Under the pieces are notes generated by a model. That model had not been told where the DNA came from. It did no database searches and saw nothing but the letters and a program-made list of their open reading frames with translations. A stretch of DNA of 64,000 bases from Haplodiscus bocki. Lineage: Eukaryota. This document shows, one piece after another, positions 11,841 through 64,000 of this stretch (the first letter of the stretch is position 1; each line of letters begins with the position of its first letter). Location: assembly GCA_965655095.1 (NCBI GenBank), contig OZ296649.1, positions 51,832,001 to 51,896,000 of the forward strand. Reading direction: 5' to 3'. Made by a program: the position numbers and the translations under genes.

Positions 11841-11906
11841 ATAAGTATAGGGATTCGAATGGTTTGCAACGGGTCCCAGGATTCATGCAATCATTCAACG
11901 GGTGAA
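11841..11906 (+). repeat. Left TIR of Polinton 1
   Basis: ATAAGTATAGGGATTCGAATGGTTTGCAACGGGTCCCAGGATTCATGCAATCATTCAACGGGTGAA; 58/66 identical to the reverse complement of 32837-32902. Confidence 0.95.
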
Positions 11907-11955
11907 TCCTAATCCTATTTTTCTCGAAAGGTTCCAATGAATTTTTTCATTTATA

Positions 11956-12267
11956 ATGGTCGGAATGAATAGCAAGCAGTTCTATGTTTTACTCGTTTTT
12001 TTCCCGTGTTTTTGTGGTCATCTCTCGTCATAGTTTTTTTAATTTGTGAGTTCTACGAAACTCAAAATACATCCAATTACGGTTTAAAATCAACAACAAT
12101 ATCACCTGTTTGGCCAACGAGTTCTTTTACACCTCGTAGTCAATATTACGACGAGTATTGCTTGAATGAAGGTGAATGTTTTTCTCTCCAGATGTGAATG
12201 TTGCGACCTGTAACTGCATTGAGTTTTGCGGTGGAGAGAGATAGAAGAAGTACATGTGGTACAATAG
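11956..12267 (+). pseudogene. Polinton 1 EGF-like growth factor gene (hydrophobic N-terminus, S/T linker, EGF domain), frameshifted
   Basis: (R<C)SQYYDEYCLNEGECFSL/DVNVATCNCIEFCGGER*KKYMWY. Cys1 reads CGT (one change from TGT) and Cys6 is a stop. Approximate spacing CX7CX5CX10CXCX8C. Confidence 0.85.
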
Positions 12268-15200
12268 AATTTTGGATTCTACGTTGACGTTTCAAGTTTT
12301 CTTCAGATATGACTGCAAAGAAAGATCGTTTGTTTTGTTCTATCGCTGATTTGCGAGATTTAGAGAACGAAACTTCAACTGTGTTTGACGTCTATTCAAG
12401 AGAAATGATAATTCAGTTTAGGAATTATGTTTTTGCCTTTGTTATCTGATTGCTCCAGAATACAGTCGAAGGCTTCTAATGAACAAACTTTCGTACCAAA
12501 ATTTTGGTTTATTTTACAAGTGTTCAAAATCTTACAGGCTTACAACTATTCTCCTTGAGTCCTCAAGGTTATTGGCAGATTTTTATTTTCTGATTAGTTC
12601 AACTGATGAAGATACATGTTTTCATCAACCCGCTAGAATGAATGCGGTGGAAGCGTTTATTTTGGTTTTACGGTTCAAGAGTGTTTATCATAAGGAATGC
12701 ACTGCGCTCAATTGTTGGTTCATTTTTCTACAGTTTTCTTTTCTCAGCAGTTGAAATGTCTCTCCTAATACTTGATAGGTTTTGGAACTCTTCTTCAATA
12801 CAAACCAGTTTGATAAACTGTCGGAATTGCATTTCAGACCATCGGCAAAGGAATCCTTATGTTTATAGGACGGTTACAGTTTGATTCAAATAGCTGTCGC
12901 CTGATTCTGTCTGAAATTTGTCTTCTCGGCCTTCTTCCACATCGGAAGTTATTCGGGGTTGGGTGATGAACATATGTCTTGAAAAGCAAAAATCAAGGTT
13001 CGCCAAACGGTCCTGCTAGGCACCAGTCATTTTGATTTGCATTTATGATCCAGCAGTGCACTCAAGTCATTCCTTTCGTAGACCACAGCTTGTTTTGTCT
13101 CAAAAAGTTTCCAAAAATTCTGATTGGTTGGGCAAACGATGCAGCGCTTAATCCTTTTGTGTATTCTGAAAGCTGCTTGCGAATTGTTGACCAATAACGA
13201 TTAAATTTTGGAAATCGAAAGTTGTCAACCCAACACAATCACTCTTTGATGAATCACTCGAGAACTCAGAACTGTATATCCCGCTTGTTTTGTTAGGTTG
13301 CAATGCTAACTCACCAATCGGTAGCTATGGAACTGGAAGGCTTTTATTGGTAAACATCTTTTTATTGTTCAAAAAATATCTGTTCGTCACAAAGAACTTG
13401 CATGGTTTGAGTTGCGACTCGGGTTTTTACGACTAAAATTTTCTACTCTGTTATCTCACCAGTCTCGAGTTACGTTTCCTAAATAAAGTCGTGCGCTCCA
13501 AAGGATTGGATAAGTGTAACTTTCTACGAAATTTCTCTCCTCACATTTTTGATCCAAACCAATACAACTGTCCTGAAGCTTCAGAGTTCTCGCAAACCCC
13601 ATTTGTGTGTCAGAGTCACCTAGGGTCAGGACCGCGTGGGCTTTAGGTTATTTGCGATATTGTCGACGAAAGGCGCGCAGCCCTGCCTGTCTACTGTCGG
13701 TGAGCGTGGTCCAACTCCTTTGCGGCCCGTTCGTCCTCGCACTCGCTCCGCTGTGCTCCACTCCGACTGAGTGCGATGACTTATGGAGGCCCACTAGTCA
13801 GTCGGCTGTACTTATAGGTTGCTGCAACTTTTATTTTTGTTGAAATGTTACGATGTAGCCCAATCCAAGCGCTCTGTCTCTTTTCGTTCAGGCTGAACGT
13901 CAGTGTTCTAAATTCACCAAAGCAATCACAAATCACCACACGACAAATTGATTTGAAGTTATGAGTAAAGGTACCGAGCAACAACAAAATTCCAAGTCCA
14001 GTGTTTTCTTTCAATTAGGCAACTTTGTTGTCATTCTTAGGATCCCGTGGGGATGTCTAAACGGTAACAAGAGCGTCATCTTTAATGGTTTGTCGACCCA
14101 ATGCATGGCAGATGCGTTCCGCTTTCGTTCGCTTACACGCGGGTGAGAAACGTTGTCGGATTGCGTTCATAAACTGGAGCCCTTTTACCCATTTATGTTG
14201 ATACGCTTTCCTTACAACAGCGGAACCGAATTCAAAGGATGACATTGATTTTTTGAGTCTGGAACTTTGCAACCGTTCGTCGTCTCCTTTGCCCTAGGGT
14301 CAATTGGAACGGGCTCACCGACTTATCGGAGTGTCTATATAAAACAACAAATAACAGTTCTGTAACTTCACTGAAGCGTACAAGTTCCCCACGAAACGTA
14401 ACATAACAAGTAGTCATGTTTGAGCACAAGATTTAGAATTGAAGGAAGATTCTAAAAACCATGTATTCAACTGCCTTAACCACGTTTTGTTAAGGTTGCA
14501 TAACGCCCTCTTGGTCAGAAGTCACATGAAAGTGGTCATCGTTAACTTGTTTCATTGGCCTCGTTCAAAAAAAACATCGCATAGGTTTGGGACTAATTCG
14601 TTTTCCTATAAAAATGAATGTAGGACAATTTACCTCAAACAAGAAAATGAATTATCTAAACCACGTGTAATGGTTGGCTGGGCCCAACTTCTACGTATTA
14701 CGTGTCCGTAGTAGATAAAATAGTTTGAATGAGCAGATTTTTTGCGGCATATCTTTGAAATTCATGCCCTCATTACTGAAAATTGAAATGGCAACATTTA
14801 CCCAAATGATGAAACTTTTGGTCCGACTGAAGATTTTGTGACAACTAGTACGAAAGAAAAATCTGATGACGCATCTCCGCAACCTGCAGCTAGCGATGTT
14901 ACTGTGTATGCAAATATTTTAACTTAGAGACATTCACGTTTTGAGTCGCCAATTATTTGATCCACTGGTGAAAAAAGTTTTGACTTTCGGACAAAATGTG
15001 AGCTAAAAGTTGTATTTCTCCATGAAAGGCCCCGCCTGATCGATACATGAAGCACAAATACGCATGGCAGAAATAACACCTGATTCGATAGCATGTTTTA
15101 GAGGAGCGTCAAAGTGTTGACAGTTTCCATCTAAAGAGTTGAAGACTCTCAATAAAGGCCTTCAAAACCGGTGTGAAATTTTTTTTCGAGAAAAACACAG

Positions 15201-16675
15201 ATCGAGTCTTGGTGGGAAACAGTGAGTCATTACTTTGGAAGCACACGAAACGCACTTGATTAAAAAATGGGATTAGAAGATTAAGCTTGACGTTCAAACC
15301 ACAAAATTTGTTTTCCAAGCACAGAGCTGATGTAGCGGGAAGTAAACAGCATTGCGCCACTGGTTTACTTGTGAACGTTTGTCGCAGTTCAATGTAGAAT
15401 TGCAGAAATGTGGCTGCAGTAAGTAGAATCAGCAATAAATTTTGAGTTGATCTCTAGAGTTTTAAAAAGAAATCAAGTTAATATGTCACACGAAAATCTA
15501 CACGACTGACTGAGGAGATATAGATATAAACGAAGTACCTATGTCCAAACATAAATTCACAAATTTGTCTGTCGGGGACCAATTTTTGGACAATGAAAAC
15601 TGTTATCATGATTCTGCGATTTTTTAAACATCATTGTTTCCAACAAAAGCAAGCTTACTGGGGAAAAGATTGACTGATTTTCACGATTGTCACGACAAAA
15701 TAAAGTGCAACGTAAAATTCATCACGAAGCGAGACTCTCAATGTCGGTTGGCACCTTTAAGGTTTCGTTTATTGACATACAATCATGTCATCTATGGACG
15801 CATACAAACGGAACCTAAATCTTTTTTGCGTTGATTCAAAACCGAAGAAGAATGCAAATTAAATGTATCGCATACTCCAGAATTAGAGTGAAAAATTGAG
15901 AAAGAGCACGAAAAAATACGAAAAATTAACATATGGCTTTAATTGAGCTGAAGAGCAAGTGGGACCTACTTCTTTAGGCTTTTGCCGGACACGATTTCAG
16001 AAAAATCAAAAGCTGAAAAATGAATTCCCGAAAACAACTTGTGTTGCCTTCAAAAAAACTTTTTTGAACAAGTTAATTGCCCCAATATTTTGGCAAAAGT
16101 GATCAAACTTCTTACTGAAGAAAAATCGTCAAAAAGTTTTTTGACAAAAAGCAGCTACAGAGACCATGTGCTTCACTTGCTAGCGCTCAATTAAACTTTG
16201 GACGGAAAATTCAAGAGATAGCTCAGCTTTTGTAAACTTTTTGCCGAAACTTCTGTGAAAATTGTCGAAAAGCCCGAAATGCGAAAAGTTGAAAAGTATT
16301 GACGCAATCAAATATCTTGCCACGGAACGCAGGTGTTTAGCTCACTTCATGACTAACCGTCAAAAACAATTTATTCAAGAGATCTTTGACCGTAACGGAA
16401 AATATTTTCGAAAAAGTGACAGAATCAGGTCCAAAAATTCAAAATTCTCAATGAAAAACAACTTTGTAGCCAAAATACCAGCAGGAACGGTTGCTTGTAT
16501 CATGGATTCAGGGCCGCATGCTAAAATTAGCCAAATGTAATGTTAGTTTTCGAGATCATGCTTGTGACACAATGTATGTGTTACTAAAGGTCTCGGCACG
16601 GGGCCCCTACCCCGGCCTCGTAATGTAAATTGGGCGAAACCCCGAACCAACAAGGTCCTTGTCTTCGAGACCACT

Positions 16676-17612: not shown

Positions 17613-18307
17613 ACAAAGTAATTCTCCAAGCGATCTCCTCTTCATGTCTCTTGTTGGACCTGGTGGGTCTGGTAAACTGCAGTTATTTTTTTAATGCTCT
17701 CATCGGAGACGACGTTTCATCCTGAATTTGGTGAAAACTTTTATTTTTATAAGGAGTGTCAACCCCTATTTGATGAGATGTCTATAAAGTTGGACGTTGA
17801 CTTTGTGCCATGTCTCGAATTTGATATGATCAAGAAACTTGCTAATTGTTTTTTGGTTTTTGACGCTGCTTGCGAGGAAATACACCTGGAGAAAGATTTT
17901 GTCAAAATTGCAGATGCTGGCCGACATAAGAAAATAGGTTACATCTTTGTTAAACATAACTTGTTCCATCAAAGCAAGTGGTCACGCACTATAGATCTAA
18001 ATACAACGCACATTGTTTTGTTCAAATCACCACGCGACAAGCAATAGGTTGGACATTTTGGGAGACAGTTGAAGAAAGACAGTTAATTCATTGGATTTTC
18101 ATATCAAAAGGGATTACTGAGCCCTACAGTCATTTTGTGAGCGACTTAAATCAGGAAACTATTGACTCGCTTCGTTTCTGTTCTGATACTGTTGGGCCTG
18201 GTCCAACTACTTTTTTTATACCGTCTAATTTTGCAAAAGAAACGCCGCTGACAAATGAACGAGAAAAACGCGCATGCACTGAGGTGCTGGCAACGCAGAA
18301 AAACTAA
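17609..18307 (+). pseudogene. Polinton 1 A32/FtsK-like packaging ATPase
   Basis: Walker A SLVGPGGSGK, Walker B CFLVFDAACEE, AGRHKKIGYIFVKHNLFHQSKWSRTIDLNTTHIVLFKSPRD. Frameshifts and stops present. Confidence 0.93.
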
Positions 18308-18560
18308 GAAGTCATACCATAAGTTCCTCAGCGAGTGTGATCCCACTGATCTGAAATCCCTGTGCGAATCCGCCCTTAATATAATCAACGGCAATGTGCT
18401 GTGTGATGTTTGTCTTTTGTTACCTTTCGTTCGAGAACTCAAATTTTTAGGTGACTCAAATACTTCCACTGAGAAACGGCGAAAAACGTTTTGCACCACC
18501 AAAGGAATCAATTTGCTCCGACAAATCGGTGGACCTATCAATTCCTGTTTGACGCAATGA
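18255..18560 (+). CDS. Polinton conserved small basic protein (LCEsALNiiNGNV motif)
   Basis: Motif typical of the ORF that follows the ATPase in Mavericks. Homolog SECVVNILNGNV in element 2. Confidence 0.7.
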   Translation: MNEKNAHALRCWQRRKTKKSYHKFLSECDPTDLKSLCESALNIINGNVLCDVCLLLPFVRELKFLGDSNTSTEKRRKTFCTTKGINLLRQIGGPINSCLTQ

Positions 18561-19140
18561 CTTCTCGGGAATTTGTTTTTGTACGTATAGAGAATTATGT
18601 CAAGGAACAACCCAAAGCGTCAGAAGTTCTTCAAGATCCAACTTTTACGGTGAAATCCAAACTTATGATTCTCTTACAACGAAGCCATCCGCCTCAAGTA
18701 ATTGGAAAAGTCGAAGTGAAGGATGAGAGAATGTCGGAAATAGAAAAAAAAGTAAATAGTTGTGAATTGAGTTCTCGAATCCCTCTCGATGCTTGAACCG
18801 TGACAACTTGCGAAGTTGAAGCCGATTCTCAAAAAAATTTATAACTCCTCCGATGTTCCGGTAAGCGAAGATGGCTTTCTTACTCTCGGCGACAGCACCA
18901 CGTCCATCGTAGCTTCCATTTTCCTATTTAACCTACAGCAAGCAATGAAAGGGTTGCATGATCCCGACTATCGGAATATTCTACAGAAAATTGATGTTTC
19001 TCCTCAGTTGGTTGCAAACTCAGGCTAAGCAAATACTATTATCAGCGCGGAAAATTGTACCCATTAGACCTAAAAATAAAACTCTGTAAAACTACCGAAA
19101 GAGAAGAAACGTCTGGAAGATCAGCAATCTCACGAAGATA
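18557..19140 (+). pseudogene. Polinton conserved hypothetical between ATPase and integrase
   Basis: EFVFVRIENY...DVSPQLVANS matches EVVLIPEENY...DIPPQLVANS in element 2. Confidence 0.65.
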
Positions 19141-19168
19141 CTGAAAACGAAACGAGCCCGGCTAAACC

Positions 19169-20045
19169 TTGGAAAACTTTCCGATCAACGTTTTTTCCGA
19201 TCAACGTAATCTCAAGAGCGTTTATTGGAAAGGACCAGCTGCATTTGGCAGCGTGAGAAATCTCCAAAAAGGAACTGAACTCACACGAAAAAACTACGTG
19301 AATTTCCTATCGAGGAAAGATGCGCATACAAATTATAGACAATATCGTCGCAGATTCCCTCGGCTAAAAGTTTTTGCTTTTGATATTGATGAAATATGGT
19401 CCGTCGATGTTGCTGAAGTTGAGAAGCTCGTGAGATACAAGAACGATGTTAAGTACTTCCTCGTTACCGTGGATGTTTCCTTCCGCAAGTCGAGAGTTCT
19501 CCCAATGTGAACCAAAACTGCAGAAGAAACTGCCAAAACTTTTGGAAAGATGATTGTGAAAATTAAACCACAAAAGATTAGGCCTGACAAAGAAACCGAA
19601 TGTAAAGGCGCTTTCCTTCTCCTTTGCCAGAACAATAACATTGACACTTACTCTACTCACAGTGAAACCAAGTCAGCGTTTGCAGAGAGGATTACTCGCT
19701 CTCTCAAAACTTATATGAACACCTCGAAAACAAGTGGTCGTATCATGACATTAACGAGCTGCTGTCCTTTGTACAAACAATGAACTCAAGGGTAAACAGA
19801 ATGACAGGGTTAGCGCCTAACAAGTTTCAAAAAACACGTCTTCAAGTTAGTTTCATTAACTGCTGAAGAGTCGAGTCAACTGGTCAGGAAATTCAGGAAA
19901 GCCAAGTTTAAAATTGGTAGTACAGTCCGAATTGCTAATGAAGATCTCCCTTTCAGAAAAGGTTACAAACAGAGTTTCCCTGACGAAGTGTTTACAATTG
20001 TGAAGATTCCAACCTTCAACCCACCCACTCATTCTGTGGTTAACG
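19169..20045 (+). pseudogene. Polinton 1 retroviral-like (rve) integrase
   Basis: PAAFGSV, IDEIWSVDV, YFLVTVDVS, DKETEC, KSAFAERITRSLK, FRKGYKQSF.DEVFTI. Confidence 0.93.
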
Positions 20046-20049
20046 CTAA

Positions 20050-20890
20050 AGTAAATTTGTTGTTTACTTTGAGTCAACAGGTTCAATCGACTTTCACAAA
20101 ATTAACAAAAGTGTCTTTTTGCAATCTACTTCCAGAACATTTGACTCTGGAAGGTGATTGGCGGGTAGCCCTTGCTGAGATCATTTTCCATTGAGGAATT
20201 GAAAATGTCACAAAAGATCTCCTTATATCCACACCGAAAACTCCCTACGATAACTCATTGATTTTGAATTCATAATCTGCAATACAACGCGAAGACTGGT
20301 CGAATAATGGTGTATTCAATGATGTCGATTACGAAAGCGTTACGGAAGTTTTGAGTCATTTGCATTCTGCAAGGAATGACAAGGGGCTTTTTCTGACGTC
20401 AACTGTTGAAAATAATTTTGTAGAGATCAAGTTTCGAGAGGGCTATGGTCTTAGCCTACTTGACCGCTCCCTTTTTGATGTGCTAGGATTCAAGGGAGTG
20501 CCAGACACCAACTGGGGTGGGTTTTTTATTGGATGCAACGAAAAAGTGGTGAAGCAACATCAGCCTGTCATTAGTAATTACCCACCAGATAAGACCGCTG
20601 GAACAGATATTTTTCTCGTAAGCTCGGACATTATCGAACATCAGCATATAGCTGGAATCAAGGCGCCATTTCTTCGACTTGTTGACACAGAAGGAAAGTT
20701 ATCAGACGGTGAGTTAGCAATTACTTCTAGTACAATCCACAAAGTTTTTACAGAACTACAATTCAGGAAACTAGTGCGCGAGACAGTTCGCGAAATTTTC
20801 ATTGAGTTAGTAGATATAACCGGTCATTACGTTTTTTTCGTCGGCACAAGCAGAGTGCTCGTAACTCTAAAATTTGAAAAAATATCAAAT
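20050..20890 (+). pseudogene. Polinton 1 minor capsid protein (penton, PX)
   Basis: FCNLLPEHLTLEGDWRVALAEI at the N-terminus, then FLVSSDIIEHQHIAGIKAPFLR...IFIEL.D.TG..V.F...VTLKF. Confidence 0.85.
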
Positions 20891-21230
20891 GCAAGGCTTG
20901 TAGTCGTGTCAAGGGGTGCTGCCACATTCTTCCGGGCACACCCGTCAAAGAGGCAGTGGATTTTGATCGTTAGCAGCAGGAGTTGGCCGCGTGGCTTTGC
21001 CCTTCGGAAGAAAGTTATTCTTCCTGCGGTTAAATCTATCGGTAGAAAATTGTTCATGCAAAGTTTGCCTGACATTATAGATGTTGCTACGAAGAAAAAG
21101 TCGCCCATACGAGCTTTGAAGTGGGCTGTAAAAAAACTGTTAAGAAACAACTCGGGTCTGGCATAAACTGGAAGAATAGAAGATAACGAAAGAGAAACAG
21201 CCGAAAGAAAGCAAGGCTACAGAGAATTAG
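20889..21230 (+). pseudogene. Polinton 1 basic core/pVII-like protein (RQRGSG motif, amphipathic helix)
   Basis: HTRQRGSGF*SLAAGVGRVALP/RKVILPAVKSIGRKL. Lies between the minor and major capsid genes. Confidence 0.7.
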
Positions 21231-21256
21231 ATCAGTTTCTTTCTCCAGAGTCAACA

Positions 21257-22548
21257 ATGTTGCCTAATATCTTACCTAATGAAGCTTCACATTGCTCTCG
21301 GGGTATTTTTGAACGTCCTCCTTTGATTTTTACGTTTGACACTTCATTCGAACAAAAAGTTGGTCCTGCCTACGCGCAAAATGGTCCCATCGTGGAGTTT
21401 GAGGTGGTTGGGGATCGCACCAACTTCATCGATTGGCAAAACATTAACCTTGAAGTCAAATGTGAAATTCTGAAATCCAGTGGTAATAAAATTAATTACG
21501 ATGAAGCGAATACTGATTCACCATGTTTTGTTAACAACACTCTTCATTCTTTGTTCTCTGAAAATGCTTTTACTGCAAATGGTATCAAAATTTCTTCTGG
21601 TAATGGTCTTTAGGCTCTGAAAGTTTTCGTTGAAACCGAAATTCGCACAACAAGGAAGCTAAAGAAACTTTGGAGATGCCAGGGTTTTTCTTACGAAAAG
21701 GAACCTACCGATTGTACTACTACTATTTTTACGGAGCGAACTGTGGAAACAAAGGACTCAAACCGTGTATCCTTTTTGGGAAAAGTTGCATTGAATTTTT
21801 TTCATGTGATAAGCATCTCATCAGTGGTGTCAATCTTTGCATCTCCTTTCTCAGGAATCGTCCCGATTACTGTCTGATTCAGGATGTTGAAGCTAAAGAG
21901 TACAAGGTTGATATTACCCCAGCGAATTTGTTTGTTCGCAAAATGATTGTCAGTGACCCCGTATATTCTACCATTGAGACCACACTCACCAAAAACTTCG
22001 GCTCTTTTTTGATATACCGAAATTATACCAAAAACATTCCTTATGTCCACCGGAAGTAAAAAATGGGATCACGAAGACATTTTCAACCGTGAAACTATCC
22101 GAAGGTTGGCTGTTGCAATGACTACCAATAAAGCTTTCCTTGGTAGCAAACGAGAAAATCCATACCACTTCCAGAAGTTGGGCTGATAGTGTCACAGTAT
22201 ACCGAAATGGTTACATATGTGCTGGAACTCCTTTACAGACAGACGATGACAAACAGCTTTGTTTTAATTCCCTTGAAGCTTTAGCTTTTAAACAGCACGG
22301 ACACGGTTGCTTTTGACAACTTTCCCAATCACTACGTTTTGGTTTTCGATTTGACAAGTACCCAGGACGCCTGTCATGACTACCTTTATCCTGAACTCCC
22401 AAACGGCTCTATTTCCTTTATTCTGCGTTTCTCAACTCAGCTCACGGACACTATAGAGCTGGCCTTTCTCGGTGAGAACACATCAACAATAAACATTGAA
22501 TCATATCGGAAGGTTTCAAAGAAAATTCATCCATGCAGTAAAGTTTAG
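21257..22548 (+). pseudogene. Polinton 1 double jelly-roll major capsid protein (PY/hexon-like)
   Basis: IFERPP, GPIVEFEVVGDRTNFIDWQNINLEVK, FVNNTLHSLFS, ANLFVRKM, NPYHFQK, VFDLTSTQD. Confidence 0.9.
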
Positions 22549-22556
22549 TCGAAAAA

Positions 22557-22984
22557 ATGATTGGTGAATTGGAATTGTGGCGACTTATCATTAAATGTAA
22601 TCATTTAAAGTTTAGTTTCATTGGTGTCTGTGCTGCGGTCAATTTTCCCCTTTCGCTTGACGAGAACACTTTCGTGATAGTGAATTCAGACAATTCAAGC
22701 AAAGAGGGGACAAATTGACTACTTTTCTGAAATAGAGATGGAGATGTTTCCTTTAGCAATCCTTTGGGGTTAAAGCTTTACACTTACACAAAGTGTGTTC
22801 CCGCCTAGTTTATGTCGACTATGGCATTCTTGAAGTTATGAATCATCAGCTCCTAAAACCTACTTCAAACTTATGCGGACTCTACTCTATTTTTATTGCT
22901 CTTCACGTTTTCAGTGCATAATATCCTGTGATACCGACAGTTGATGAAAATCAGTTACTTTGCATTATGAAGCATTTGATTTGA
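22557..22984 (+). pseudogene. Polinton 1 adenain-like cysteine maturation protease
   Basis: FIGVCAAVNFP, VIVNSDNSSKEGT(N*) at the HW position, HQLLKPTSNLCGLYSI. Confidence 0.88.
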
Positions 22985-23919: not shown

Positions 23920-24600
23920 GGGAATCACGATTTTCCGTTGGAGGATTTTTTCTCAGTGCCGATAAACTTCGTATAGGAACCCTTCTATGTTTCAGAAAAT
24001 TTCTGGTGTCGAAAAATGTTAGGGATAAGTGAGGTGGCGGGTATCACGATTTTCCGTCAAAATTGTTTATCATAGTACCGAATCATTTTGTAGAGGAACC
24101 CTTCTGTGTTTCAGAAAATTCCAGGTTTAGGAAAATTTTATGCCCAAGAGGGGAGTATCACTATTTTCTATGGGAAATTTGTTGTCTCACAGTACCGAAA
24201 AACTTTGTAGCTCGTAGGGGAACTCTTCTGTGTTTCAGAAACTTTCTGGTTTCAAAAAATTTCATGAATGAAAGGGGGGAGGGAGGGAGGGAGGGATGGA
24301 GTATCAAAGTTTTCCGTCGAATATTTTTTTGTCTCACGGGGCCGAAAATTTCGTAGAGGAACCCTTTAGTGTTTCACTAGTTTCGGGTATCGAAAAATGT
24401 TCGCGATAAGTCATGAAAATCTTTGGCGGGACAGACTCGAACCCCCAACCTGCTTCAGAGCCCTGTTGTCTTAACCCTACTGCTGTCATTTATTTTTCAA
24501 TGAAAAGAAATGGCAATTTTGGTCTGAAGAAAGAAAAAACGACCCCTCTGAATGAATAATTTCTTCTTGCTTATTACATATGCGATGAAAAATAAAACAA
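23920..24600. repeat. Probable host repeat nested in Polinton 1: about four ~120-bp degenerate units plus a tRNA-like segment
   Basis: Recurrent ATCACGATTTTCC...GTAGAGGAACCCTTCTGTGTTTCAGAAAA. Minus-strand B-box GGTTCGAGTC near 24435. Not seen in element 2. Confidence 0.75.
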
Positions 24601-45565: not shown

Positions 45566-46591
45566 ATGGCAGAGGGACCGGCACCAGCATTGCCTGCTTC
45601 GTCAACATCTGATACTCCTCCCCCTGCTTACAGTGAAAGTAATTTCATCACTGCAAAGTTTAATGAAAAGAAAATCAAGTTTTCTGTCAACTTGGTTGAA
45701 GCTTCTAGAAGCAGTGTTGATTTTCTTCGTTTGGTCAGCAGGTATCCTCAACTCTATGAAAGACCATTGATCAACTTGGCCATTTATCGGTATGAGAAAT
45801 TTTGGCTCCCCCTAGCTGCCAAAGCAGGGCCTGCTGTCACCAAGTGGGTTGCTCCCCTTGACATCCAGTGGGCGTGGCATGTACACATGTTGGCACCGGT
45901 CTATTACGAAAAAGACTGCATGGCTCTTGTGGGTTGTATTGTAGATCATGAGCTGACCCCAATGAATGAGTACTTTAAAGCTTTGTCTGTCGCGAAGAAA
46001 GTATGGGAGCGAGAATACCCGAACGAGGCGTTTGAGATAGACTTGAAAACGGCTGCCACAACGGGTGCCAAAAGCGAAGAAGTGGCTTCTTTCGAGAGTA
46101 AATTTTCTTACGACATAGCTGGTGCTTCTTCCAGGCAAAAAACATTTTTTTATCAAGTTTCTCTACCCCATTACCTCGACCGAGCTTTCATTGAGAAGGC
46201 TGTCCAGAGGTATAAAAAGTTTTGCTTCCTCAAAAGTCACAACCCCAACACATTTTTAGTGCCATGCTACGATTTTGACGTGGTCTGGCATGCACATCAA
46301 GAACACCCTTTGAAATATAAAGCCGACACTGAAAAGCTGATTGGCAAACTTTTGAATCACGACGATTCCGTCAACAACCGCAATACTGGGTCTAAGTTAA
46401 TGAAGGCTGATGCACTTACCCGTGAAATGTGGTCGAAAGTATTCAACGAAAATTTCAACATTAACGGTGCCATGTTCAGGGGTGACATTCCTAGTGGCAT
46501 TAACACAATGTCAAAATTGGAACTTCTCAAAGTTGGATTTGCGGAAACGCCTTTCAGAATCACTCATCTCAAATTGACAACCAATACAGAG
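45566..46591 (+). CDS. DUF1399 / glycine-rich-domain-containing protein (GRDP-like), first coding exon
   Basis: AIYRYEKFWLPL, APLDIQWAWHVHMLAP, RQKTFFYQVSLPH, AVQRYKKF, FLVPCYDFDVVWHAHQEHP, LNHDDSVNNR, GAMFRG. Donor GAG|gttgga. Confidence 0.9.
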
Positions 46592-46658
46592 GTTGGATAT
46601 CAAACGCTTCTCTTTGTCTTTCGGTTTTGTGTGGTTACTCCCAACTGTTTTGTTTCAG

Positions 46659-46823
46659 GTATATAACACTAAAAAATTGAAAATATGTGCCAATTATGGT
46701 GGCAAAAAGATTTCTATATTGTTCGATCCTGGGCAAATAGAGTGGTCGGAAAATAAAAACCAAGTGACTTCTGGAACAAACAGCTTTGTTTTGGACAGCT
46801 CTCTGATTCACAAATTAGACATC
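46659..46823 (+). CDS. GRDP-like gene, second coding exon (further exons not found in window)
   Basis: tgtttcag acceptor, 55 open codons in phase 0, gttagt donor. Confidence 0.7.
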
Positions 46824-50243: not shown

Positions 50244-50579
50244 ATGATTTTGATTCTATCAATTGTAGTAGCTTCGGAATTGCTAACACTAGATGACGAA
50301 GGAACCGAAGCAAAGCCCAGAGACATCCCAACTCCTAAATCACAGGGAGAAGAATGTTCAAAGCAATTGGAATTTTATTGTCTCAGTGGTGGCACATGCT
50401 TATACATTCCAGATGAAAGCGTAGCAGCATGTGTATGTGATAATGTGTATGCTGTTGAACCATGTGAAAAATGCACTTACAACTTAGTCGCACATCCTAA
50501 AGACCTCGAAATAAATTGGATTGGCAATTTCGAAAATCTCAAAACAGGTTTTGACAGGAAGTTCGATACACGATATTAA
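50244..50579 (+). CDS. Polinton 2 EGF-like growth factor (short hydrophobic N-terminus plus EGF domain)
   Basis: MILILSIVVAS...CSKQLEFYCLSGGTCLYIPDESVAACVCDNVYAVEPC, exactly CX7CX5CX10CXCX8C. Confidence 0.88.
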   Translation: MILILSIVVASELLTLDDEGTEAKPRDIPTPKSQGEECSKQLEFYCLSGGTCLYIPDESVAACVCDNVYAVEPCEKCTYNLVAHPKDLEINWIGNFENLKTGFDRKFDTRY

Positions 50580-52510: not shown

Positions 52511-52525
52511 AATATTATTATCTTT

Positions 52526-53217
52526 ATGAACGATGGCTTTTTTATGTCAACAGTGAAACCAGGGGAATCCTGGAAAACTGAATGGATTTTTTCAATGCTG
52601 ACTTCGGAAACCACATCTTACCCCACAATAGGGAAAACGCACTATTTTTATGGAAAATACCAACCTGTTTTTACTAGAAATCCAACGAAAGTTAGTTATT
52701 AATATCGTCACATTTCTTGACTGCGAAATGACAATCAATTGAGAAAACATCCTTCTTGTTTATGACGACTCCTGCGATGAGATAACCAAGAAAGATACTT
52801 TTTTAAGTTAGTAGTAGCTGAACGTCATCCGAGGCTGTTGTATTTTCGTCAAGCATAACTTGTTCCTACAAAGCAATTGGTCTCGCACTACAAGTCTTAA
52901 CACGACTCATATCAATTTGTTCAAATATCCGCGTGACTTTCAACAGATTGACCCTTTTGGCAAACAGTTGAAGAATACAAATTTGCTATCCGAATGCTAC
53001 TAGAACAACATTGAAACTTTACAAGAAATTGGTGATTGAGCTCGACCCCAAACCCAATGAGTTTCGGCGCTACATGTTGAATTCTTCTGGGCCCGACCTA
53101 TCTTTTTATCTACCGCCATCACAAGCGAAAGTAACTCTTAATATATATGAGCGAGAGATCTGCGCGTTTAATAAAGCAGAGGCTAAACAAATAGAAGGGC
53201 AGACTAGCAACGTTTAA
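52526..53217 (+). pseudogene. Polinton 2 packaging ATPase
   Basis: Degenerate Walker A KPGESWKT, ILLVYDDSC, FVKHNLFLQSNWSRTTSLNTTHINLFKYPRD. Confidence 0.88.
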
Positions 53218-53224
53218 GGGATCA

Positions 53225-53470
53225 ATGAAAACATAATGACATCAATTCTCATCCGAGTGTGTAGTGAACATTTTGAACGGAAATGTTGGGAGAAAGTTAA
53301 AAAAAAAGATACCATGCGAGATGGAACTGAAAAATTTGTGTCAGCATATTAAACCCTATACGAAACGTCGTCAAGTGTTATCTTCAACAAGCGACCTAGA
53401 ACTTTCGCATGTGATCAGTCGTCCTTGCTATCCATATCTATGGGAACGAGTGCTCAAGAAGTTGTCCTAA
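53225..53470 (+). pseudogene. Polinton 2 conserved small basic protein
   Basis: SECVVNILNGNV...KRRQVLSS. Confidence 0.65.
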
Positions 53471-53990
53471 TTCCGGAAGAAAATTACATCAATAAACAGT
53501 CGATTGCTTTGAATACTTTGGATGCTCCCACTTTTCTTGAAATGCAAAACTACTCACGTTGCTTCAACGTCACGTTTGCACAGATAATTCTGACGCAGCA
53601 AAGCAGAAGGAAACAATAGTCAAGGAGAAGGAACACCAAAAACTGCGTAAACTTGACGATCGAATAATGAGAACCCCTTCTTTGTCGAGCTCATAGGAAA
53701 ACGAAAATCTCGGTCGATTTTGAAAAATTCGAAAACTCAGGTATTTCGATAAGTGAAATGAGGAATTGGAAAATTGGTAATAAAATTACCCACTCAGACG
53801 CTACCAGTTTCCTTGACAACCTTCAAGAAAGGAGGAAATCGTGCCTACTTAGACTCTCAAGTGATTTTGAGTGAGTAAGACATTCCACCTCAGTTGGTTG
53901 CAAACTCAGAAGCAAAACGCATGTTGACGGTGGTGACTCGGTCAAAGCCACCGTCAGGAAAACTAAGAATCACATGAGCAGCAACCTAGC
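53440..53990 (+). pseudogene. Polinton 2 conserved hypothetical
   Basis: EVVLIPEENY...DIPPQLVANS. Confidence 0.6.
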
Positions 53991-54030
53991 GAAGGTTTTG
54001 ATGAACCGTCAGCGAAGAAGGGATATCAGC

Positions 54031-54900
54031 ATGTCACCAACTGATCTCAAAACGATCGTCAAATATTACTGTGTCAGGCCAGCTGCTTATGGAAGTGTTC
54101 GAAACCCATCGAGTGACGAAGCTAAGCGAATCATAAATCAAAAACTTCCTACGAGCTACGAAAATGCTCTCATGAATTATAAACAAATGAGAAGAAACTT
54201 CACGCCTCCAAGTTATTCTTGCTCCATAAACGAGGTTTGGTCAATTGACATAGCTCATATGGACAAACTCTCCAAGTGCAACAATGGTGTCGATTATGTA
54301 TTGGTAGCTGTTGATGTCTTATCGCGCTACCTGCGAGTTATACTATTTTGGGCAAAAAACATCAAAGTAGGTAGCAAGAGTTTTCTTAGCAAGATTTTGA
54401 AGCGAAGACCAGATGAAAGTTTGGTCTGATGAAGGCACAGACTTCAGATGGGATTTTCGCGAACTATGCAAAGAAAAAGAATTTGACGCATATACGACAG
54501 ATAGTGAAACCAAGTCGGCTGCAGGAAGGATTATAAGGTCTTGGAAGAATATAATATACACATACTTGGGGGGTACGTGGATCTATCATTACACCGAGAA
54601 GTGTCAGTCTTCTTTTTGACATTATCCTGTTGCAGATTAAACAGACTGACGGGACTGGCACCGAAAAAAATACCCGCAAGAACGTTTCAGATTTGATCTC
54701 TCTAGTCCCTGAACAGTCAACGCGCTTCATGAGTTAACCCAAACCGAAATTTAATGACAGAGTGCTCATAGCAAAGGGAAACCTACCAATTGAAAAAGGC
54801 TACAGAATTTTTGAGACTAACCTTTTGCCATCATCAAATAACCGCATTCAATCCACCAACTTGTGAACACAATCGTAACGAACAAGAAGGAAAAATTTTC
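54031..54900 (+). pseudogene. Polinton 2 rve integrase
   Basis: PAAYGSV, INEVWSIDIAHM, YVLVAVDVLSRY, VWSDEGTDF, SETKSAAGRIIRSWK. Confidence 0.92.
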
Positions 54901-54924
54901 TGGAATTGAAGTTGTTAAGGTAAA

Positions 54925-55770
54925 TGGATGGATTTGATTTTTAGTCCGAGTCCACAGGCTCACTGAATGTTTTCAGAGAAAAGAACATAGCAACCTTTCG
55001 GAATACTTTGACAAATTGAACAACTGGCAGGTGATTGGCGACTTGGATCAGCGGAATTATTTTTACATTTTGGAATCAAAAATTTTACTACAAGATCATA
55101 CTTCATACACTCCAAAACAGCCATTCAAGTTGCTCACTGGCGGCTGTGATGGAGTAGTGGCTCGAGAAAATTAGTCTGACGATGCGGACTTCACAACGTG
55201 TGAATACGGAAGAAATGAAGATTGACTAGAGCCTTTGAAGCAAGGAACAGAAATTTTCAAGCCACTTTTTTCTGCGAGGGACCGAAGAGAGAGTTGTAGA
55301 GCTGGCATGTTTTGCGAAATACCGCGTCAGTTTCATGGATGGTAGCATTTTGAACGTTTTAGGTTCTGAAGGCATTTCATACAACAATAGTCACTGTACT
55401 TTTTTCATTGGTCATAAGAGGAAAGCAACAAAACGGATGTAACCAATTAGCAGCAACTGCCCAACTGACCGAACCTCCCAGCTGAGACAATTATGTTCCT
55501 CGTTTCCACTAATCTTATGGAATAGCAGCGTCTTGCAGGCTTCAAGACACAATTACTCAGAAACATTGAGACTGAAAAACGTTTGTTGAACGGTAACCCC
55601 GGCATTACCTCGAGAACAGCGCTTAAGATTACTTCCGAACTGCAATTCAAAAAACCTTTTGCGAACACAACCGATGAAGTCCAGATAGAACTGGTGATTG
55701 CAACATGTCCCAAATTCTCGTTTGCTGGCAACCGAAGTGGTGCATTAACACTGAAGTTCTTGAAGTTTTG
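54925..55770 (+). pseudogene. Polinton 2 minor capsid protein
   Basis: QLAGDWRLGSAEL, FLVSTNLME, SELQFKK...EVQIEL...LTLKF. Confidence 0.78.
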
Positions 55771-55967
55771 GAGACGCAAATATATTATCGACGTGAAGCT
55801 ATATTTCTGCTTCTCGTAAACGATATAAAGGATTTGGACCCTTGGAAGCTGCAGTTGGAAGGGTCGCAATAACTTTTGAGAAAAAAGTACTGCTTCTAGC
55901 AGTTAAATCTGTCGGAGATGTGCTACCTACAGAGTCTACCTGAAATAGTGGAGGTTGCAACTAGGAA
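55770..55967 (+). pseudogene. Polinton 2 basic core/pVII-like protein, truncated
   Basis: GFGPLEAAVGRVAITF/KKVLLLAVKSVG...QSLPEIVEVATRK. Confidence 0.65.
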
Positions 55968-56600
55968 AAGTTTTATCAGATATCCGTCAGAATTCCATAA
56001 ATATTGAGGATGCAGAAGATAACAAGAAAACAACACGAGATAGCTTTTCTGCGGAGAAAATTAATGTTGGAAAACGTTTATATGGCCATCGAAAACTTTC
56101 TGACGAACAAGTCCTCCTTGTACTGGCTCACAGAAATCATGCCCAAAACGTTTCTGGTTACTACTGACAGTAACAACTAGAACCATGAGGATATTTTGCA
56201 ACGAGAACCAATTCGACATTTCGCAATCGCAATGACAAGAAATGAAGCCGAGTTGCGAACCAAGCAATTAAATCCCTCTCACTTCCGGAAATTCAACTTG
56301 AGTTCTATAATCATCTACCGCAATGGTTGTCCAGTAGCAGGAACAGTTGATGATCAAAAAATCCCACCTGAACACACTTGAAGCTTTGGTTTTTGAAAAC
56401 CACGGTCACGGTGCTCCGTTTGCCTTTTTTGCTGATCGTTGTATCCTTGTATTCTACCTAACAAGTACTCAATAGTGTAATGGTTTATTGTACCCACAGC
56501 TATTACATGCAGCGGTTTCCGTCAATATGAATTTCTCGCAACAACTGATAGAAATCATTGGAATAGTTTTCCTGGCGAGAAATCTTTGTTCATATTCCAA
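55968..56600 (+). pseudogene. Polinton 2 major capsid protein, C-terminal part only
   Basis: TEIMPKTFLV, HEDILQREPIRHFAIAMT, NPSHFRKFNLSSIIIYRNG, colinear with element 1 from about 21840. Confidence 0.82.
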
Positions 56601-56850
56601 TAATAGCAATATAACATGGAATGGGTAGCCCAAGCGGGTTCGTCAAAAAAGTAATCGTTTTCTCTACGACACAAAAGCAAACAATGCTGTCCGTTTTTCT
56701 CAGCTGTTTCAGATTTAACAATCATTAATGTGTTAGGGAAAAGTGTTTGGGATAACCATCAGCAGCGTGCACACCTAAGTACCTGTGCAGTCTAGTGCAT
56801 CTACATGTCCAATTGCACTTTCAGTGCTTTCTATTCTTCCATTCGGTTCC
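56600..56850 (+). pseudogene. Polinton 2 adenain protease remnant
   Basis: NHQQRAHLSTCAV*CIY corresponds to NHQLLKPTSNLCGLYSI. Confidence 0.5.
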
Positions 56851-59369: not shown

Positions 59370-61570
59370 AACAGTGTATCGTTCTTAAAATAGCAAGAGC
59401 GATCAAAATTAAATAAAGCACTATTGTCAGTAAAGCTCAAAAACGTACCGAAAATATTGGGAGGACTAGCATTAGTCGTACACTGGAAACCTTCTAAACT
59501 TCTCTTCATGGATTAATGTTTAGCTACGTTTTGAACTGGGATCTCCTTGATCGATGAGATGGCGAGTCAGACTCGAGGGCCATATGAATGTAACGATTTC
59601 AACTTGATGCATTGTAACTGTGAACGAAACCGCCGAGCCAGCTGATGTTTTAAGCTGTTGGGGAACAGTTCTGCTTGAAGTTTGTGAACAGTTATATGCG
59701 TATATCAAATGGGACCAACAAAACCTGTTAAGCATCAGGAGATATATGCTCTTACCAATTTCCATGTAGCATTTTGAAAGATGTTGTTGACCCAAATCAG
59801 TTTCCACGTCGAATCACCTTTCCGACCCAGCTGCAAGCTATCAATTCATTGTTCCAGTTGAAGCAGCCGGTGATAAGAGCCGTCAGCTACAGGTTTCTCG
59901 CGCATTCAGTGTCGTGCATACTAGTAGTTGAAGGAACGTGTAGGCTGCGTCGCATGAACTCTGAATGCATTTCTTCATTTGAAAATGGTATTTCAAAAAC
60001 ACAACTGTAATTTTTCAATCAGTTTTTATTGGTTCAGCTCATAGAACAGAAGTTGTTAGCTGAACAAATTCGGCCTTTCACTGAACAGCAATGCAAGGAT
60101 GAATACTTCATGGCGACGAAAATTAAACAGTGTAATGAAAGTTTTTCAATCATGAAGCGGTGTCATATTTGTTGCAAATTTTTGGCAAATCTTTGAATCG
60201 AATGAGGAAAATTCTTCATAGCCTGAGTGAAATCGAACCTAAACTATTCTATAGTTCATGTGAATTTATTTGTGAACCCTCAAGAGGAATCACCTTTTGA
60301 ACTGCTTCTCGATGCCAACAACTTGTGTGGCGGTGTGACAGAAAAACTACCCGGCCCTGGAAGATTTTCAAAATTTTCTGATTCGCATTGAAGACATCCT
60401 CAATACAAGCATCGATTCCAGCGTTAGATACCTCACAAGGTAGATCTGGAACACTCAGACTAGCTATAGGACTCGTGTAAAGATTTCTTCTTAGCAACAA
60501 CAAAATAGAAAAGTGTCTCAGCTACATTCAACGGAAACTTCCGGAAAAAATGCGACTGAAAGCTGAATCAGCAGAAGTTATTGCGTTTACTCAATGAGAA
60601 CTTCAAATACACAGTTCATTGTTTGAATGTTAAGCGTTATGTAGAGCTCGGCTTGATTGTTGAAAAGTACATCAAGTTTTACAATTCGCTCCATCAGTTT
60701 GGCTACGACCATATATGTCACTTGACTAAGCGATATGACACTTATCGGTTATGAAGTTCCATTAAGGATTTTTTCAATTGTTGAACAACAACAGCTGCTT
60801 CATAAACTCGAAAGTGAGCGGAATAGTTCGAATTGATCTGATACGATCAATCGAAGAAGGTCAACGCATACGGATGAATCTTTGATGAAGTCATTCACTA
60901 TATTTGGCGAGTAATTAGCTGCCGTAGCTGTCAAGCTAACAAAAATATTCTGGAACAAGCCAGCTATAGTCAGAGCATGCGTCCTTGATTTAGCGAAGTT
61001 TCACGTGTGTTCTTTTCACTAAAAAGTTTTGAGGAATGCTTTTGATTTTAACTGTTCTCGTATACCAACTCAGTGCTATACGAGTTTGTACTCCCCGATG
61101 TCCAGAAAGAGTCAGCTGAGAAGACAGCAGCGGAAAAGTATTGATTTCTTCAATCACCCTCCAAATCACTCCTTCATGACAATGGAAACATTGGTCACAA
61201 TTTTTTGCCTAAAGACGATATGGGTGGCGAAGAAGTGTTTCTCGGACGCCAGCGGAAAGCCATACTCCATAAAGTATGGAAGGAAGTAAAAACTCTCGGC
61301 CTAAGAAGTTTCTCGGCTCTTATAGATTAATCTCAAACATGCCATTTACTGTAGTGTTTATCGACAACCAACATCATTAGATTTCGTAACATGCCCATCC
61401 GATGGATTGATCATCAACTGGAAACAGTTTCAAGCAGTGTAATGTTGCTATCACCATTCGTTGATGAACGCTTCTTTTCAAATAATCGTATTGACGTTTA
61501 CGATTTGGTCTTCATATTGTGAGAGATAGCAGTGTTCCTTGAAATAATGGAAGACCCTGATTGGGGTGGA
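59370..61570 (+). pseudogene. Polinton 2 pPolB, heavily decayed and with deletions
   Basis: KYTVHCLNVKRYVELGL, WLRPYM, LNNNSC, WNKPAIVRACVLDLAKFH, KPYSI, SPFVDERF. DPDWG matches EHDWG of element 1. Confidence 0.85.
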
Positions 61571-61868
61571 GAAATGTTCTCCAGCCTTGACTGGGAATCA
61601 CTATTATTTAAGGACCCAGTCTTTTCAAAAATATACCCAACAGAACCCCTTCTCGGCCGGGAACTCTCCTTCGAAAGCCTCAAAAACAACGACACTCAGC
61701 CAAATTATGAACGATAGTGGAACTACAGCTGACCTCGGCTTCCATCTAGTTGAATTTACCAAAAACGATTCAGATGAGCAGTGGCTTCTAGATCTAGAAA
61801 CCGACATGAGAGGAACTTTCACTGAAGTCTTCGCAGCCCATGGAGGGTAACTTTCTTTTTTCTCAATA

Positions 61869-62339
61869 AATCGTTACCTTGACGGAGAAGCGACTGATGG
61901 TTGAGGTAATAACGTTTGACTCATGAACAACCGCAACGGAAGAAACGTCATGCTAATGCTTAGTTCCGATTAAGAATATCACTTTTATATCTGGTTCTTC
62001 GGAAATTTCTTTCATCTAGACATATCTTTCATAGATTTGCTTCTTTCGGACATTTTCCTCCCATAACAAACAATAATCACAAGGTGTGATTGGTGGGATA
62101 TAGGAAAGTGGGTAGACACATTCTTCTGATGAGAGTGTATGCACAGTTTCTTGAGCCAGCTTGAGCAAAGGCAGTATGTTAAAAGAGTTCCAGTTATTCG
62201 GAAAATCTGAGAGTTAAGACGCTACTGTAGGCACGCCATAGCAAAGATTGCGCGAGGGACGGTGCTTGATCAAGAAATAAGTTTATTTGGCTCGGAGAAA
62301 ACAAAACTTTCTCAATATTTGTTACACTGCACATTTTAA
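61869..62339 (+). pseudogene. Possible SOCS-like gene (degenerate SH2 plus SOCS box) in Polinton 2
   Basis: C-terminal VPVIRKI*ELRRYCRHAIAKIARG...KTKLSQYLLH fits the BC-box LxxxCRxxI and a terminal L..YL. Upstream MLMLSSD*EYHFYIWF..FHLDI is weakly SH2-like. Confidence 0.45.
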
Positions 62340-62639
62340 GTAGTCAATAGTTTAGAAACGAAGAAATTTTTATCGGCTGAGAAGCAGCTCCAATTGGTCG
62401 TGTCACAAAAGACAGTAGAAAAGGAAAAATATTAAAGAAGTGATGCGGGATAAACAATCATTTACAAAGTTACGAAGTAAACTTAGATATAAAACCACTA
62501 GTACGTGGGCAAGCTTCCCTGATAGATCTTTATAAGCGATTCGAACGGTTCCAACCCCCATTTTTTGGGGGGGGGGGACCTGTACATGCCGGAATTTGCT
62601 ATGGGAAACAGCGAAATAAATTCTAGAAACAATTTGTGG

Positions 62640-63900
62640 TAAATGAAAAATCCAAGATGGAAATTACTAGCGCTCAAGAATATGTCCCCCCTAAAAACCC
62701 ACGTCATGTCCGCTCCAATACAATCAAGCCTCGCGCTGCGGAGTTTCTTTTTGCCGACATATTTACATCAATCAAGACAGAAAACATCTTCGGAGGAATA
62801 ATTGAAGAAAATTCGTTGGAAAGCGCATGGCAAAAAAATTCGAAACGCCACATAATACAAACACCTGATGGTGCACGCACCTAAAGTCGTTACCAATAAT
62901 ACCAACTCCCACTTAGAGGTACCCAGACGTGAAGAGCTTTGAAAAAAACTACATGAAAATGCGACGAAAGTTCTATTGAAGTTCATTGAAAAAGCATTGA
63001 AGACTTTTACAAATCGGGAATACATCCCCTGATAGACCACGTCTTGGTTGTTCCAATGTTACCAATAACCGCATTTGGAGGTAACTGGGCGACGAAATAA
63101 TTGGGAACAAAGCCTTGCAGATATCTTCCCCAAAATTGTTTCAGGGTGAAATTGATGAAGAAAGCTTTGGAAATTTTATTCAGCGCTCAGGGAAACGCCT
63201 CCCTGCCAGCCCACTTCATGGCCCTTCAATCAATACGAAATCCATCGCGAAGTGGTTCTGCTCCTAAGGCTATTTGCAGAAAAATACAAAACTCAGAGAA
63301 TTTTCTGTGTGTAAAAACGAATGAAAAGTCCATCGACAAAAAATGGTTAGCGCCCGGCAATGTAACTCCCTGATAACCCACTTAATGCTTTTTCGGATAG
63401 TTGTAGCCCCCGGCACTGCAGAAAGCGGAGCTGCTGAGAAATTTTCAATTATCCAGATAAAAGTCAGTTTGAAAAAAAATTGGTTGAAGTGGCATGGAAA
63501 ATTTAAGGGCTCGGGAATACTATCCCCTCCCATGATAGCGCAGTTTATTCTGTATCGAATGGTACCAACCGGCAGTTTGGCCTAAGACTTGACAAAGAGG
63601 AAGTTGCAAAAAACACTGAAAAAACTTACCGAAAGGGACTTGTTGAACGTCAAGTTCATAAAATACGCCTGGGAAAAAGGTTTTAACGCTCAAGAATACC
63701 TCCCCCTGGAACCCACTTGATGACTTCGCATTAGTACCACCCCCAACTTTTGGCGGCTCTGCAGACAGAAATGTGACAAATTATTCAATAGAAACTGAAA
63801 AAAAATTGAAAATTTACTACCATGAAAACGGTTGATAATTACATCGATTGGATAGATAAAATACGCTAACATCGTTTACATGCTTGAAATGTCCTCCGCA
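62640..63900 (+). repeat. Degenerate ~170-bp tandem array (7-8 units) encoding a ~57-aa repeat
   Basis: CGCTCAAGAATA-like anchors at about 62671, 62846, 63011, 63184, 63351, 63508, 63687 and 63864. Peptide consensus K.IEKAW.K.F.A(Q/R)EY.P. Confidence 0.7.
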
Positions 63901-64000
63901 CAACCTTTCCCGCCTCCAGGATGTCACTTGAATATGTAAAATACAAGTTCCCGGTGGGAATGGAACTTGGGTTTTTAGATGTTTCAACCCCTCAGGAATG

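Follow-up and report, generated by a model that had tools for sequence, protein, structure and literature searches.

An EGF-like ligand gene shared among Polinton families and a many-versioned uS5 gene, traced from two decayed elements of Haplodiscus bocki

When an animal Polinton (or Maverick) carries host-like genes, are these arranged as an effector set at the two ends of a conserved core, as in a poxvirus, and do they mark the element as a virus? The question is raised by a 64,000-nucleotide stretch of the Haplodiscus bocki genome (hereafter the window; positions 51832001–51896000 of C2 in a genome of 1.50 Gb), for which a first-pass annotation had described two Polintons whose terminal genes would form a host-manipulation toolkit for proliferation, translation and cytokine signalling. 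Two such elements are indeed present. Both are bounded by terminal inverted repeats (TIRs), the first lies between exact copies of a target-site duplication (TSD) and the second between flanks that agree at four of six bases, and the claimed colinear core is real: the order EGF-o203-ATPase-o101-integrase-minor capsid-PZ-major capsid-protease-pPolB (protein-primed DNA polymerase B) is identical in the two. Both are also dead, with stops in most of their genes, a point absent from the earlier annotation.

Animal Polintons with host-like accessory genes are already known, so the idea has precedents in its outline. The durable finding is a gene of the EGFR-ligand type that is conserved across Polinton families, together with a uS5 cassette that exists in many versions. 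We are moderately confident in reading the window as two dead Polintons from families that keep an EGF gene whose product is predicted to be secreted and would activate the host EGFR, to which one family (family A, the relatives of element 1) adds a probably exchangeable uS5 cassette whose product would act as an RNA-binding or decoy protein.

An EGF-like gene in four Polinton families

A search of the genome for pPolB gave 2060 candidates, of which 150 were scored, some with open frames of 1135–1335 aa. Stretches around selected matches, a non-random sample, were grouped by gene order into five families that we label A, B, C, Y and D. Family A is close to element 1, family B is close to element 2, and family C is a single copy.

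The EGF gene that had been placed near the left end of both window elements is there in each case, broken in the first and as an open reading frame (ORF) in the second (Table 1). Open EGF ORFs of 82–99 aa are present in families A, B, C and Y (four of the five examined), and have in common a 7-5-10-1-8 cysteine spacing, a C-E-K tail and a single N-terminal hydrophobic peak (2.3–2.8 by hydropathy) with none later in the protein. The proteins are only ∼30–45% identical between families, with the cysteine frame kept, and their common features suggest a single capture. The domain is of the ErbB-ligand type, a single six-cysteine EGF domain with a G-x-R motif ahead of the last cysteine: the arginine is kept in 15 of 18 distinct family-Y copies and in families A and C, and is absent from family B and element 2, while all 18 family-Y copies retain the six cysteines. 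Each of the 26 structures matched in the PDB by a family-Y protein was an ErbB-ligand-type EGF.

The gene is abundant. A genome search with EGF returned 4283 candidates (150 scored), and the corresponding search of a protein collection returned 801 clusters at 90% identity, with all 120 of those listed coming from ENA. Of 24 family-Y loci, 20 have an open frame. If expressed, so many copies would give an animal genome a large additional supply of growth-factor genes. One locus (L119, G000:C223:63001-73000) consists of tandem copies of a family-Y fragment that comprises o191 and EGF, and its EGF copies have stops.

Pooled pairwise comparison of the family-Y copies gave a ratio of nonsynonymous to synonymous substitution rates (dN/dS) of 0.46 (interval 0.31–0.67) for the whole ORF and 0.26 (0.14–0.46) for the EGF domain, and the domain is thus under purifying selection in this family. 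That the cargo genes are neutral passengers, copied along with the elements, is an explanation we find scarcely credible. Passengers would allow for the several dN/dS intervals that include 1, for the broken state of the window copies and for the spread of families without cargo; against this, the EGF cysteine frame has been kept across families of such low identity, with the domain ratio given above, and open two-domain frames of uS5 have been kept despite near-saturated synonymous sites. For EGF the passenger explanation is largely refuted. EGF does not fit the sporadic, neutral and unshared set that the first-pass annotation had named as its own counter-case: it is shared across copies and families and is constrained in its family-Y domain. 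The copies of family A have uS5 in common, and for this gene the evidence of selection is weaker.

A candidate receptor for such a ligand is encoded by the host, in a gene with GF-receptor-IV, transmembrane and kinase exons for which all 60 PDB matches listed were EGFR or ErbB4. Host EGFR-like loci (L141–L147) number at least three, at C5:26.3 Mb, C4:6.8 Mb and C9:35.3 Mb, the PDB comparison covering the C9 kinase. Given its N-terminal hydrophobic segment and the lack of a second membrane segment, the EGF product is predicted to be secreted. It would then activate the host EGFR and drive neighbouring or stem cells into division, and a larger number of dividing cells could be used by a nuclear DNA replicon that carries an integrase. 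A single short peptide and a single receptor assay would suffice to examine this activity, which makes EGF a cheap marker for the question of whether animal Polintons are working viruses; a gene of the ligand type makes most sense if it acts on other cells.

A variable uS5 cassette in family A

The uS5-like gene that had been reported at the right of element 1 is likewise real, and its match to the Pfam family Ribosomal_S5_C (E=4.4e-11) is above the cut-off. Searches of the genome gave 106 and 137 matches, many of them in tandem arrays. Open copies are 144–166 aa long and contain both the N-terminal and the C-terminal S5 domain, and their predicted fold is uS5-like (in a model with a predicted local distance difference test score, pLDDT, of 69, in which the relative placement of the domains is unreliable). 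All 60 PDB matches listed for the element protein were eukaryotic RPS2. It lacks the ∼75-residue eukaryotic N-terminal extension that is present in the host RPS2, a protein encoded by an intron-containing gene (L081).

At least seven versions of the element protein can be distinguished, 28–47% identical to one another and ∼36–38% identical to host RPS2, while the closest cellular representatives of uS5 are 80–88% identical to the host protein. This diversity bears on the role of the gene, for which the first-pass annotation had suggested control of translation. If the protein were built into host 40S subunits, giving ribosomes that favour the messenger RNAs of the element, retention of both domains and of the predicted fold, of a basic charge (22–23 K+R against 12 D+E) and of several glycine and loop residues that are invariant with host RPS2 would be expected; the loss of the N-terminal extension and the divergence of the versions, which would be ill-suited to a tightly packed subunit, make this role improbable in our view. 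Because the versions vary far more than cellular uS5 does, a decoy or free RNA-binding function is more likely than service in the ribosome. We therefore favour for the family-A protein a part in a conflict with the host, as an RNA-binding or decoy protein and not as a faithful ribosomal subunit; the many deep versions found on one backbone point to an unrecognised conflict at the level of translation or of RNA defence.

Versions and backbones do not travel together. Three loci (L067, L090 and L091) are 94–97% identical to L061 over a 743-nucleotide stretch of pPolB and yet carry other uS5 versions, while L096, only 86% identical to L061 over that stretch, has the same version as L061. In the pPolB tree, L085 and L090 are sister loci (support 99/95); they are 95.5% alike over 4.2 kb and 90% alike over their last 300 bp, and their uS5 proteins are ∼37% identical. 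The block that cannot be aligned is ∼1.2 kb long. Because several versions sit on backbones that are 94–97% identical in pPolB, the simplest reading is that the cassette has probably been exchanged between copies by recombination.

In a search of 1.84 billion proteins, 36 of the 156 proteins examined were nearer to an element version of uS5 than to host RPS2, several of them being 97–100% identical to loci in this genome. In an unrooted tree of 65 distinct sequences (from 68 rows, with one in three host-like rows kept and rows shorter than 120 aa dropped), the element proteins were split from cellular-type uS5 by a branch with 99/98 support. The tree does not allow the donor to be named, because its branches are long and it has no root. 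Divergent uS5-like proteins were also found from other ENA assemblies (P0118, P0129, P0157 and P0022, the first three of which are multi-copy). The best match of P0157 in this genome is 39% identical, so that it does not come from here, and it had no relative in metagenome contigs. All four may be examples of mobile uS5 that arose independently.

Long tandem arrays of fragments from the right ends of Polintons, with pieces of uS5, lie at C1:78.23–78.30 Mb (L129), C7:38.83–38.90 Mb (L130), C2:36.54–36.58 Mb (L131) and C6:2.24–2.31 Mb. Their units are 1.7–3.3 kb long, and those of L131 end exactly at the TIR. The arrays are possibly source loci for silencing RNA, or the birth of satellites from element ends.

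A precedent for the capture of a ribosomal protein gene is eL40 of the giant virus FloV-SA2, which the available text of Thomy et al. (2024; PMC11499249) terms the first such protein in a eukaryotic virus. The two cases are alike in that a eukaryotic DNA virus-type genome carries a ribosomal protein gene of its host. They differ in that uS5 is a core protein of the small subunit, is trimmed and highly diverged from the host protein, and exists in many deep versions on similar backbones. It would extend virus-borne ribosomal proteins beyond eL40. The terms ‘uS5’ and ‘Polinton’ are absent from the accessible part of a 2026 review (PMC13712778).

Cargo position, core genes and mode of spread

The start of the EGF gene lies ∼160–520 bp from the left end in families A, B and C and in both window copies, as a poxvirus-like layout would have it. 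A family-Y element of 18.4 kb (TIR of 651 bp, arms 99.7% alike) is arranged differently, with pPolB and the protease at its ends and EGF inside, at distances of ∼8 kb and ∼10 kb from these ends. A further 20 EGF loci were chosen by hand from the 150 scored so as to be varied; the family-Y context is found in 17 of them (pPolB being visible upstream in 15), a tandemly arrayed family-Y fragment in one and a terminal family-B gene in two. Two complete family-D elements carry neither EGF nor uS5. The confinement of host-derived genes to the ends of the elements, as it had been proposed, consequently does not hold: EGF is internal in the commonest family (15 of the 20 sampled loci), family D is without either gene, and a terminal position is found only in families A, B and C and in the window copies. 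What is conserved is the placement of EGF upstream of a block comprising ATPase, integrase and capsid genes, a position that lies at an end of the element in some families and inside it in the commonest. The layout is modular and not poxvirus-like.

The motif TAAATG is the start motif of poxvirus late promoters, and inspection by eye of 56 gene starts across families Y, A, B, C and D showed it at none. This counts against the idea of a poxvirus-type helper with the elements as its virophage-like satellites and with cargo that serves it or came from it; EGF mimics are typical of poxviruses according to the available text of PMC8785968, whereas the best matches of the cargo were cellular EGF ligands and eukaryotic RPS2, and we judge such a helper very unlikely. 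In the same source the poxvirus growth factors VGF, MGF, SFGF and SPGF are EGF-like ligands thought to prime neighbouring cells by mitosis. VGF is made as a membrane-bound precursor, whereas the EGF ORFs described here end a few residues past the domain. Unlike the poxvirus genes, they also belong to integrating elements of 14–21 kb, have no TAAATG starts and are not always terminal.

The core genes were identified largely through intact relatives. The integrase of one such relative scores above the Pfam cut-off for rve, and the window copies align to it; the Pox_A32 and Peptidase_C5 matches of the ATPase and protease (Table 1) are both below the Pfam cut-offs and are at the expected places. 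Putative pPolB ORFs of relatives (1283–1446 aa) show PolB-like motifs by eye, their Pfam matches being to zinc fingers only, and the putative capsid ORFs of intact relatives (450 aa and 267 aa) are at the expected places with no Pfam match. The names capsid, PZ and pPolB are accordingly ones that we presume from gene order, size and sequence motifs. In young copies the capsid, protease, ATPase, integrase and pPolB ORFs are open, and the TIRs of family Y are 99.0–99.7% alike in two of three elements and 94.9% alike in the third. One family-A pair gave dN/dS values of 0.09 for the major capsid gene and 0.21 for the ATPase. Open and constrained capsid genes favour a virion stage, without proving one.

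These same observations bear on whether the elements are instead purely intragenomic transposons, in which EGF would expand the stem or germ cells where copies are active and the capsid genes would serve packaging within the animal or be recent relics. Thousands of candidate copies, integrated with TSDs, are what such transposons would leave, and purifying selection on EGF fits them equally well; the capsid, protease and ATPase frames that remain open in young copies, and the low dN/dS of the family-A capsid and ATPase genes, speak for more than this, and a secreted signal would be expected to help neighbouring cells more than the chromosome that carries it. We regard purely intragenomic transposition as unlikely. 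The infectious cycle that had been put forward as a better fit than a transposon lifestyle is, all the same, not required by the data.

Several observations weigh against our preferred reading of a selected EGFR ligand and an RNA-binding or decoy uS5. Pfam EGF scores are under the cut-off in all four ORFs, and the arginine before the last EGF cysteine is replaced by proline in three of the 18 family-Y copies. The dN/dS of the N-terminal half of the family-Y protein (0.67; 0.43–1.19) is indistinguishable from 1, as are the EGF values for family A (0.72; 0.14–2.38; two sequences) and family B (0.55; 0.25–1.30; three sequences). The loci were found by protein searches (for family Y, with EGF as the query), a procedure that is biased towards intact copies and inflates intactness. 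For uS5, the dN/dS between versions is 0.24 (0–0.33) at synonymous divergence near saturation, and the values within versions are mixed (0.63, 0.40–1.07; 0.49, 0.29–0.84; 0.92, 0.55–1.73; 0.62, 0.37–1.12; and 0.13, 0–0.49), with three of the five intervals including 1. Neither gene is needed for spread, because intact family-D elements lack both and family Y lacks uS5. Finally, EGF could benefit a selfish transposon that is active in dividing stem cells even if no virions were made.

Similar combinations of rve integrase, ATPase and protease genes with TIRs and a short TSD, and with pPolB and capsid-type genes such as those presumed here, are described for the adintoviruses, animal Polintons or Mavericks whose host-like accessory genes include Bcl2, IAP, gasdermin, PLA2 and ‘Oncoid’ in the available text of Starrett et al. 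(2021; PMC8502044). Unlike them, the present elements have an ErbB-type ligand common to four families and a variable uS5 cassette that marks one. EGF and ribosomal proteins are not mentioned in the main text of that paper, although its annotated maps and those of PMC11071296 could hold such genes, and no Polinton cargo of the EGF, growth factor, SOCS or ribosomal-protein kind was found in the main texts of the literature searched. Nematode Mavericks, as described in part of Widen et al. (bioRxiv 10.1101/2022.07.12.499685), carry cargo next to the left TIR; theirs comprises protease and kinase genes, of which some have introns, together with a fusogen, whereas the cargo seen here is short and intronless. 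No fusogen turned up in these elements, though no search aimed at fusogens was made.

A more far-reaching interpretation, possible but doubtful, is that these are infectious animal Polinton viruses that evolved a secreted EGFR agonist independently of the poxviruses, in which the family-A uS5 genes form a balanced, recombining set of versions that gives specificity against a host translation defence or against co-infecting elements; the same strategy may exist in other animals, with P0118, P0129 and P0157 as its signs. In the literature searched, we met no small-subunit ribosomal protein of this kind in a eukaryotic DNA virus.

Other features of the families were noted. The complete family-D elements (L121/L021/L022 and L122/L025/L026) are 15.5–16 kb long. 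Their pPolB faces the core, a conserved ORF of 282–301 aa of unassigned kind lies at the left end, and one of them has a PHD-like finger ahead of the integrase. In family Y (L033:9-6467), the stretch between pPolB and the ATPase contains about twelve open ORFs for which Pfam gives no match, two of them with zinc-ribbon-like cysteine pairs; the ORFs neighbouring EGF that were tested gave dN/dS values of 0.19–0.42. Near several of the loci examined (L028, L050, L082 and L149) lies a further Polinton-like family, which is AT-rich and unrelated.

The two window elements and their right arms

The features of the window are collected in Table 1. The TIR arms of element 1 are 63 nucleotides long and 90% alike, and those of element 2 are 60 nucleotides long and 82% alike. 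Polinton TIRs typically start with AGT, and the left end of element 1 is decayed. Polinton TSDs of 5–6 bp are exact in most intact relatives, as in element 1. Decay of the genes is extensive: the longest ORF of element 1 that begins with ATG is 264 aa, its pPolB crosses 22 stops when aligned to intact relatives, and the integrase of element 2 crosses 13. Sibling copies of element 1 are ∼70–87% identical and are likewise decayed. The N-terminal part of the major capsid protein and most of the N-terminal part of pPolB were not detected in element 2 by alignment to relatives.

Table 1. Coordinates of the two Polintons and of their recognizable parts, numbered from the first base of the window
Feature	Position	Strand	Remarks
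Element 1, decayed Polinton/Maverick	11841–32902	+	21.1 kb including insertions; from TIR, TSD and gene map
Left TSD TGAATT, element 1	11835–11840	+	repeated exactly at 32903–32908
Left TIR, element 1	11841–11906	+	matching arm 11844–11906
Right TIR, element 1	32837–32902	-	
EGF-like gene remnant, element 1	12012–12259	+	frameshift and premature stop
∼3-kb secondary insertion splitting the o203 gene	13627–16643		missing in 6 of 6 siblings examined
Packaging ATPase (A32-like), decayed	17629–18301	+	intact relative Pox_A32 E=1.3e-4
Retrovirus-like integrase region, decayed	18557–20050	+	intact relative rve E=2.2e-9
Decayed genes, putatively for minor capsid, PZ/core and major capsid proteins	20093–22557	+	no Pfam match
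Adenovirus-type cysteine protease, decayed	22590–22978	+	intact relative Peptidase_C5 E=0.0086, weak
Putative pPolB, decayed	26403–30360	+	similar to the 1283–1446 aa ORFs of relatives
79-bp tandem array after pPolB	30577–31144		counterpart of the family-A 27-bp satellite
uS5 (RPS2)-like gene	31399–31857	-	both domains; two in-frame stops
Element 2, decayed Polinton	50011 to window-equivalent 64345	+	14.3 kb; right TIR ends 345 bp past the window
EGF-like ORF, element 2	50244–50579	+	six cysteines, 7-5-10-1-8 spacing kept; G-x-R before last cysteine lost
ATPase, integrase, putative capsid genes and locally inverted protease remnant, element 2	52511–56800	+	
pPolB C-terminal part, element 2	60275–61975	+	acidic tail at 61692–61898
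Decayed right arm, element 2	61976–64000		no SOCS and no assignable protein

Of the proposed toolkit, the proliferation gene (EGF) is real and shared and the uS5 gene is real, whereas the gene for cytokine signalling, a SOCS-like gene at the right of element 2, was a misreading. SOCS proteins combine an SH2 domain with a SOCS box, and element 2 has a profile match to neither. The part that had been taken for SH2 aligns to the acidic C-terminal tail of pPolB in better-preserved copies. Pfam gave no family in the 210-aa reading of the supposed gene and nothing in any of the six frames of 61899–64000 at E values up to 10, and a genome-wide search for the SOCS box gave two matches, both far from the window. 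A candidate box at ∼62200–62320 was rejected: the likeness is brief and due to chance, it occurs in a single frame of decayed sequence, and the closest two copies do not retain it; decay lowers the sensitivity of this test, yet no better-preserved relative has such a box.

The repeat protein that had been assigned to the same arm also fell away, as no tandem repeat was detected there in the window copy. Its relatives in family B have a 175-bp repeat after pPolB and no ORF longer than 169 codons, and the supposed protein is most likely repeat DNA. A codon-position test of the region after pPolB was powerless, since the pPolB control was flat too (shared changes 6/5/7). Gaps of 1 bp occurred in that region in all 10 copies, against gaps in two of 10 for a control that is biased by the picking of loci. 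Because the 27-bp satellite that follows pPolB in family A has long open frames in all six frames, openness of such a repeat region is no evidence for a protein. The 79-bp array of element 1 is most likely a DNA repeat and not a protein, and the family-A satellite may encode a basic repeat protein.

Positions 23920–24411 of element 1 consist of inserted copies of a common host repeat of 119–139 bp. Between the two elements, on the forward strand at 45566–46666, lies an intact ORF of 366 aa with two GRDP-like domains (PF07173, E=5.4e-45), which is probably a host exon.

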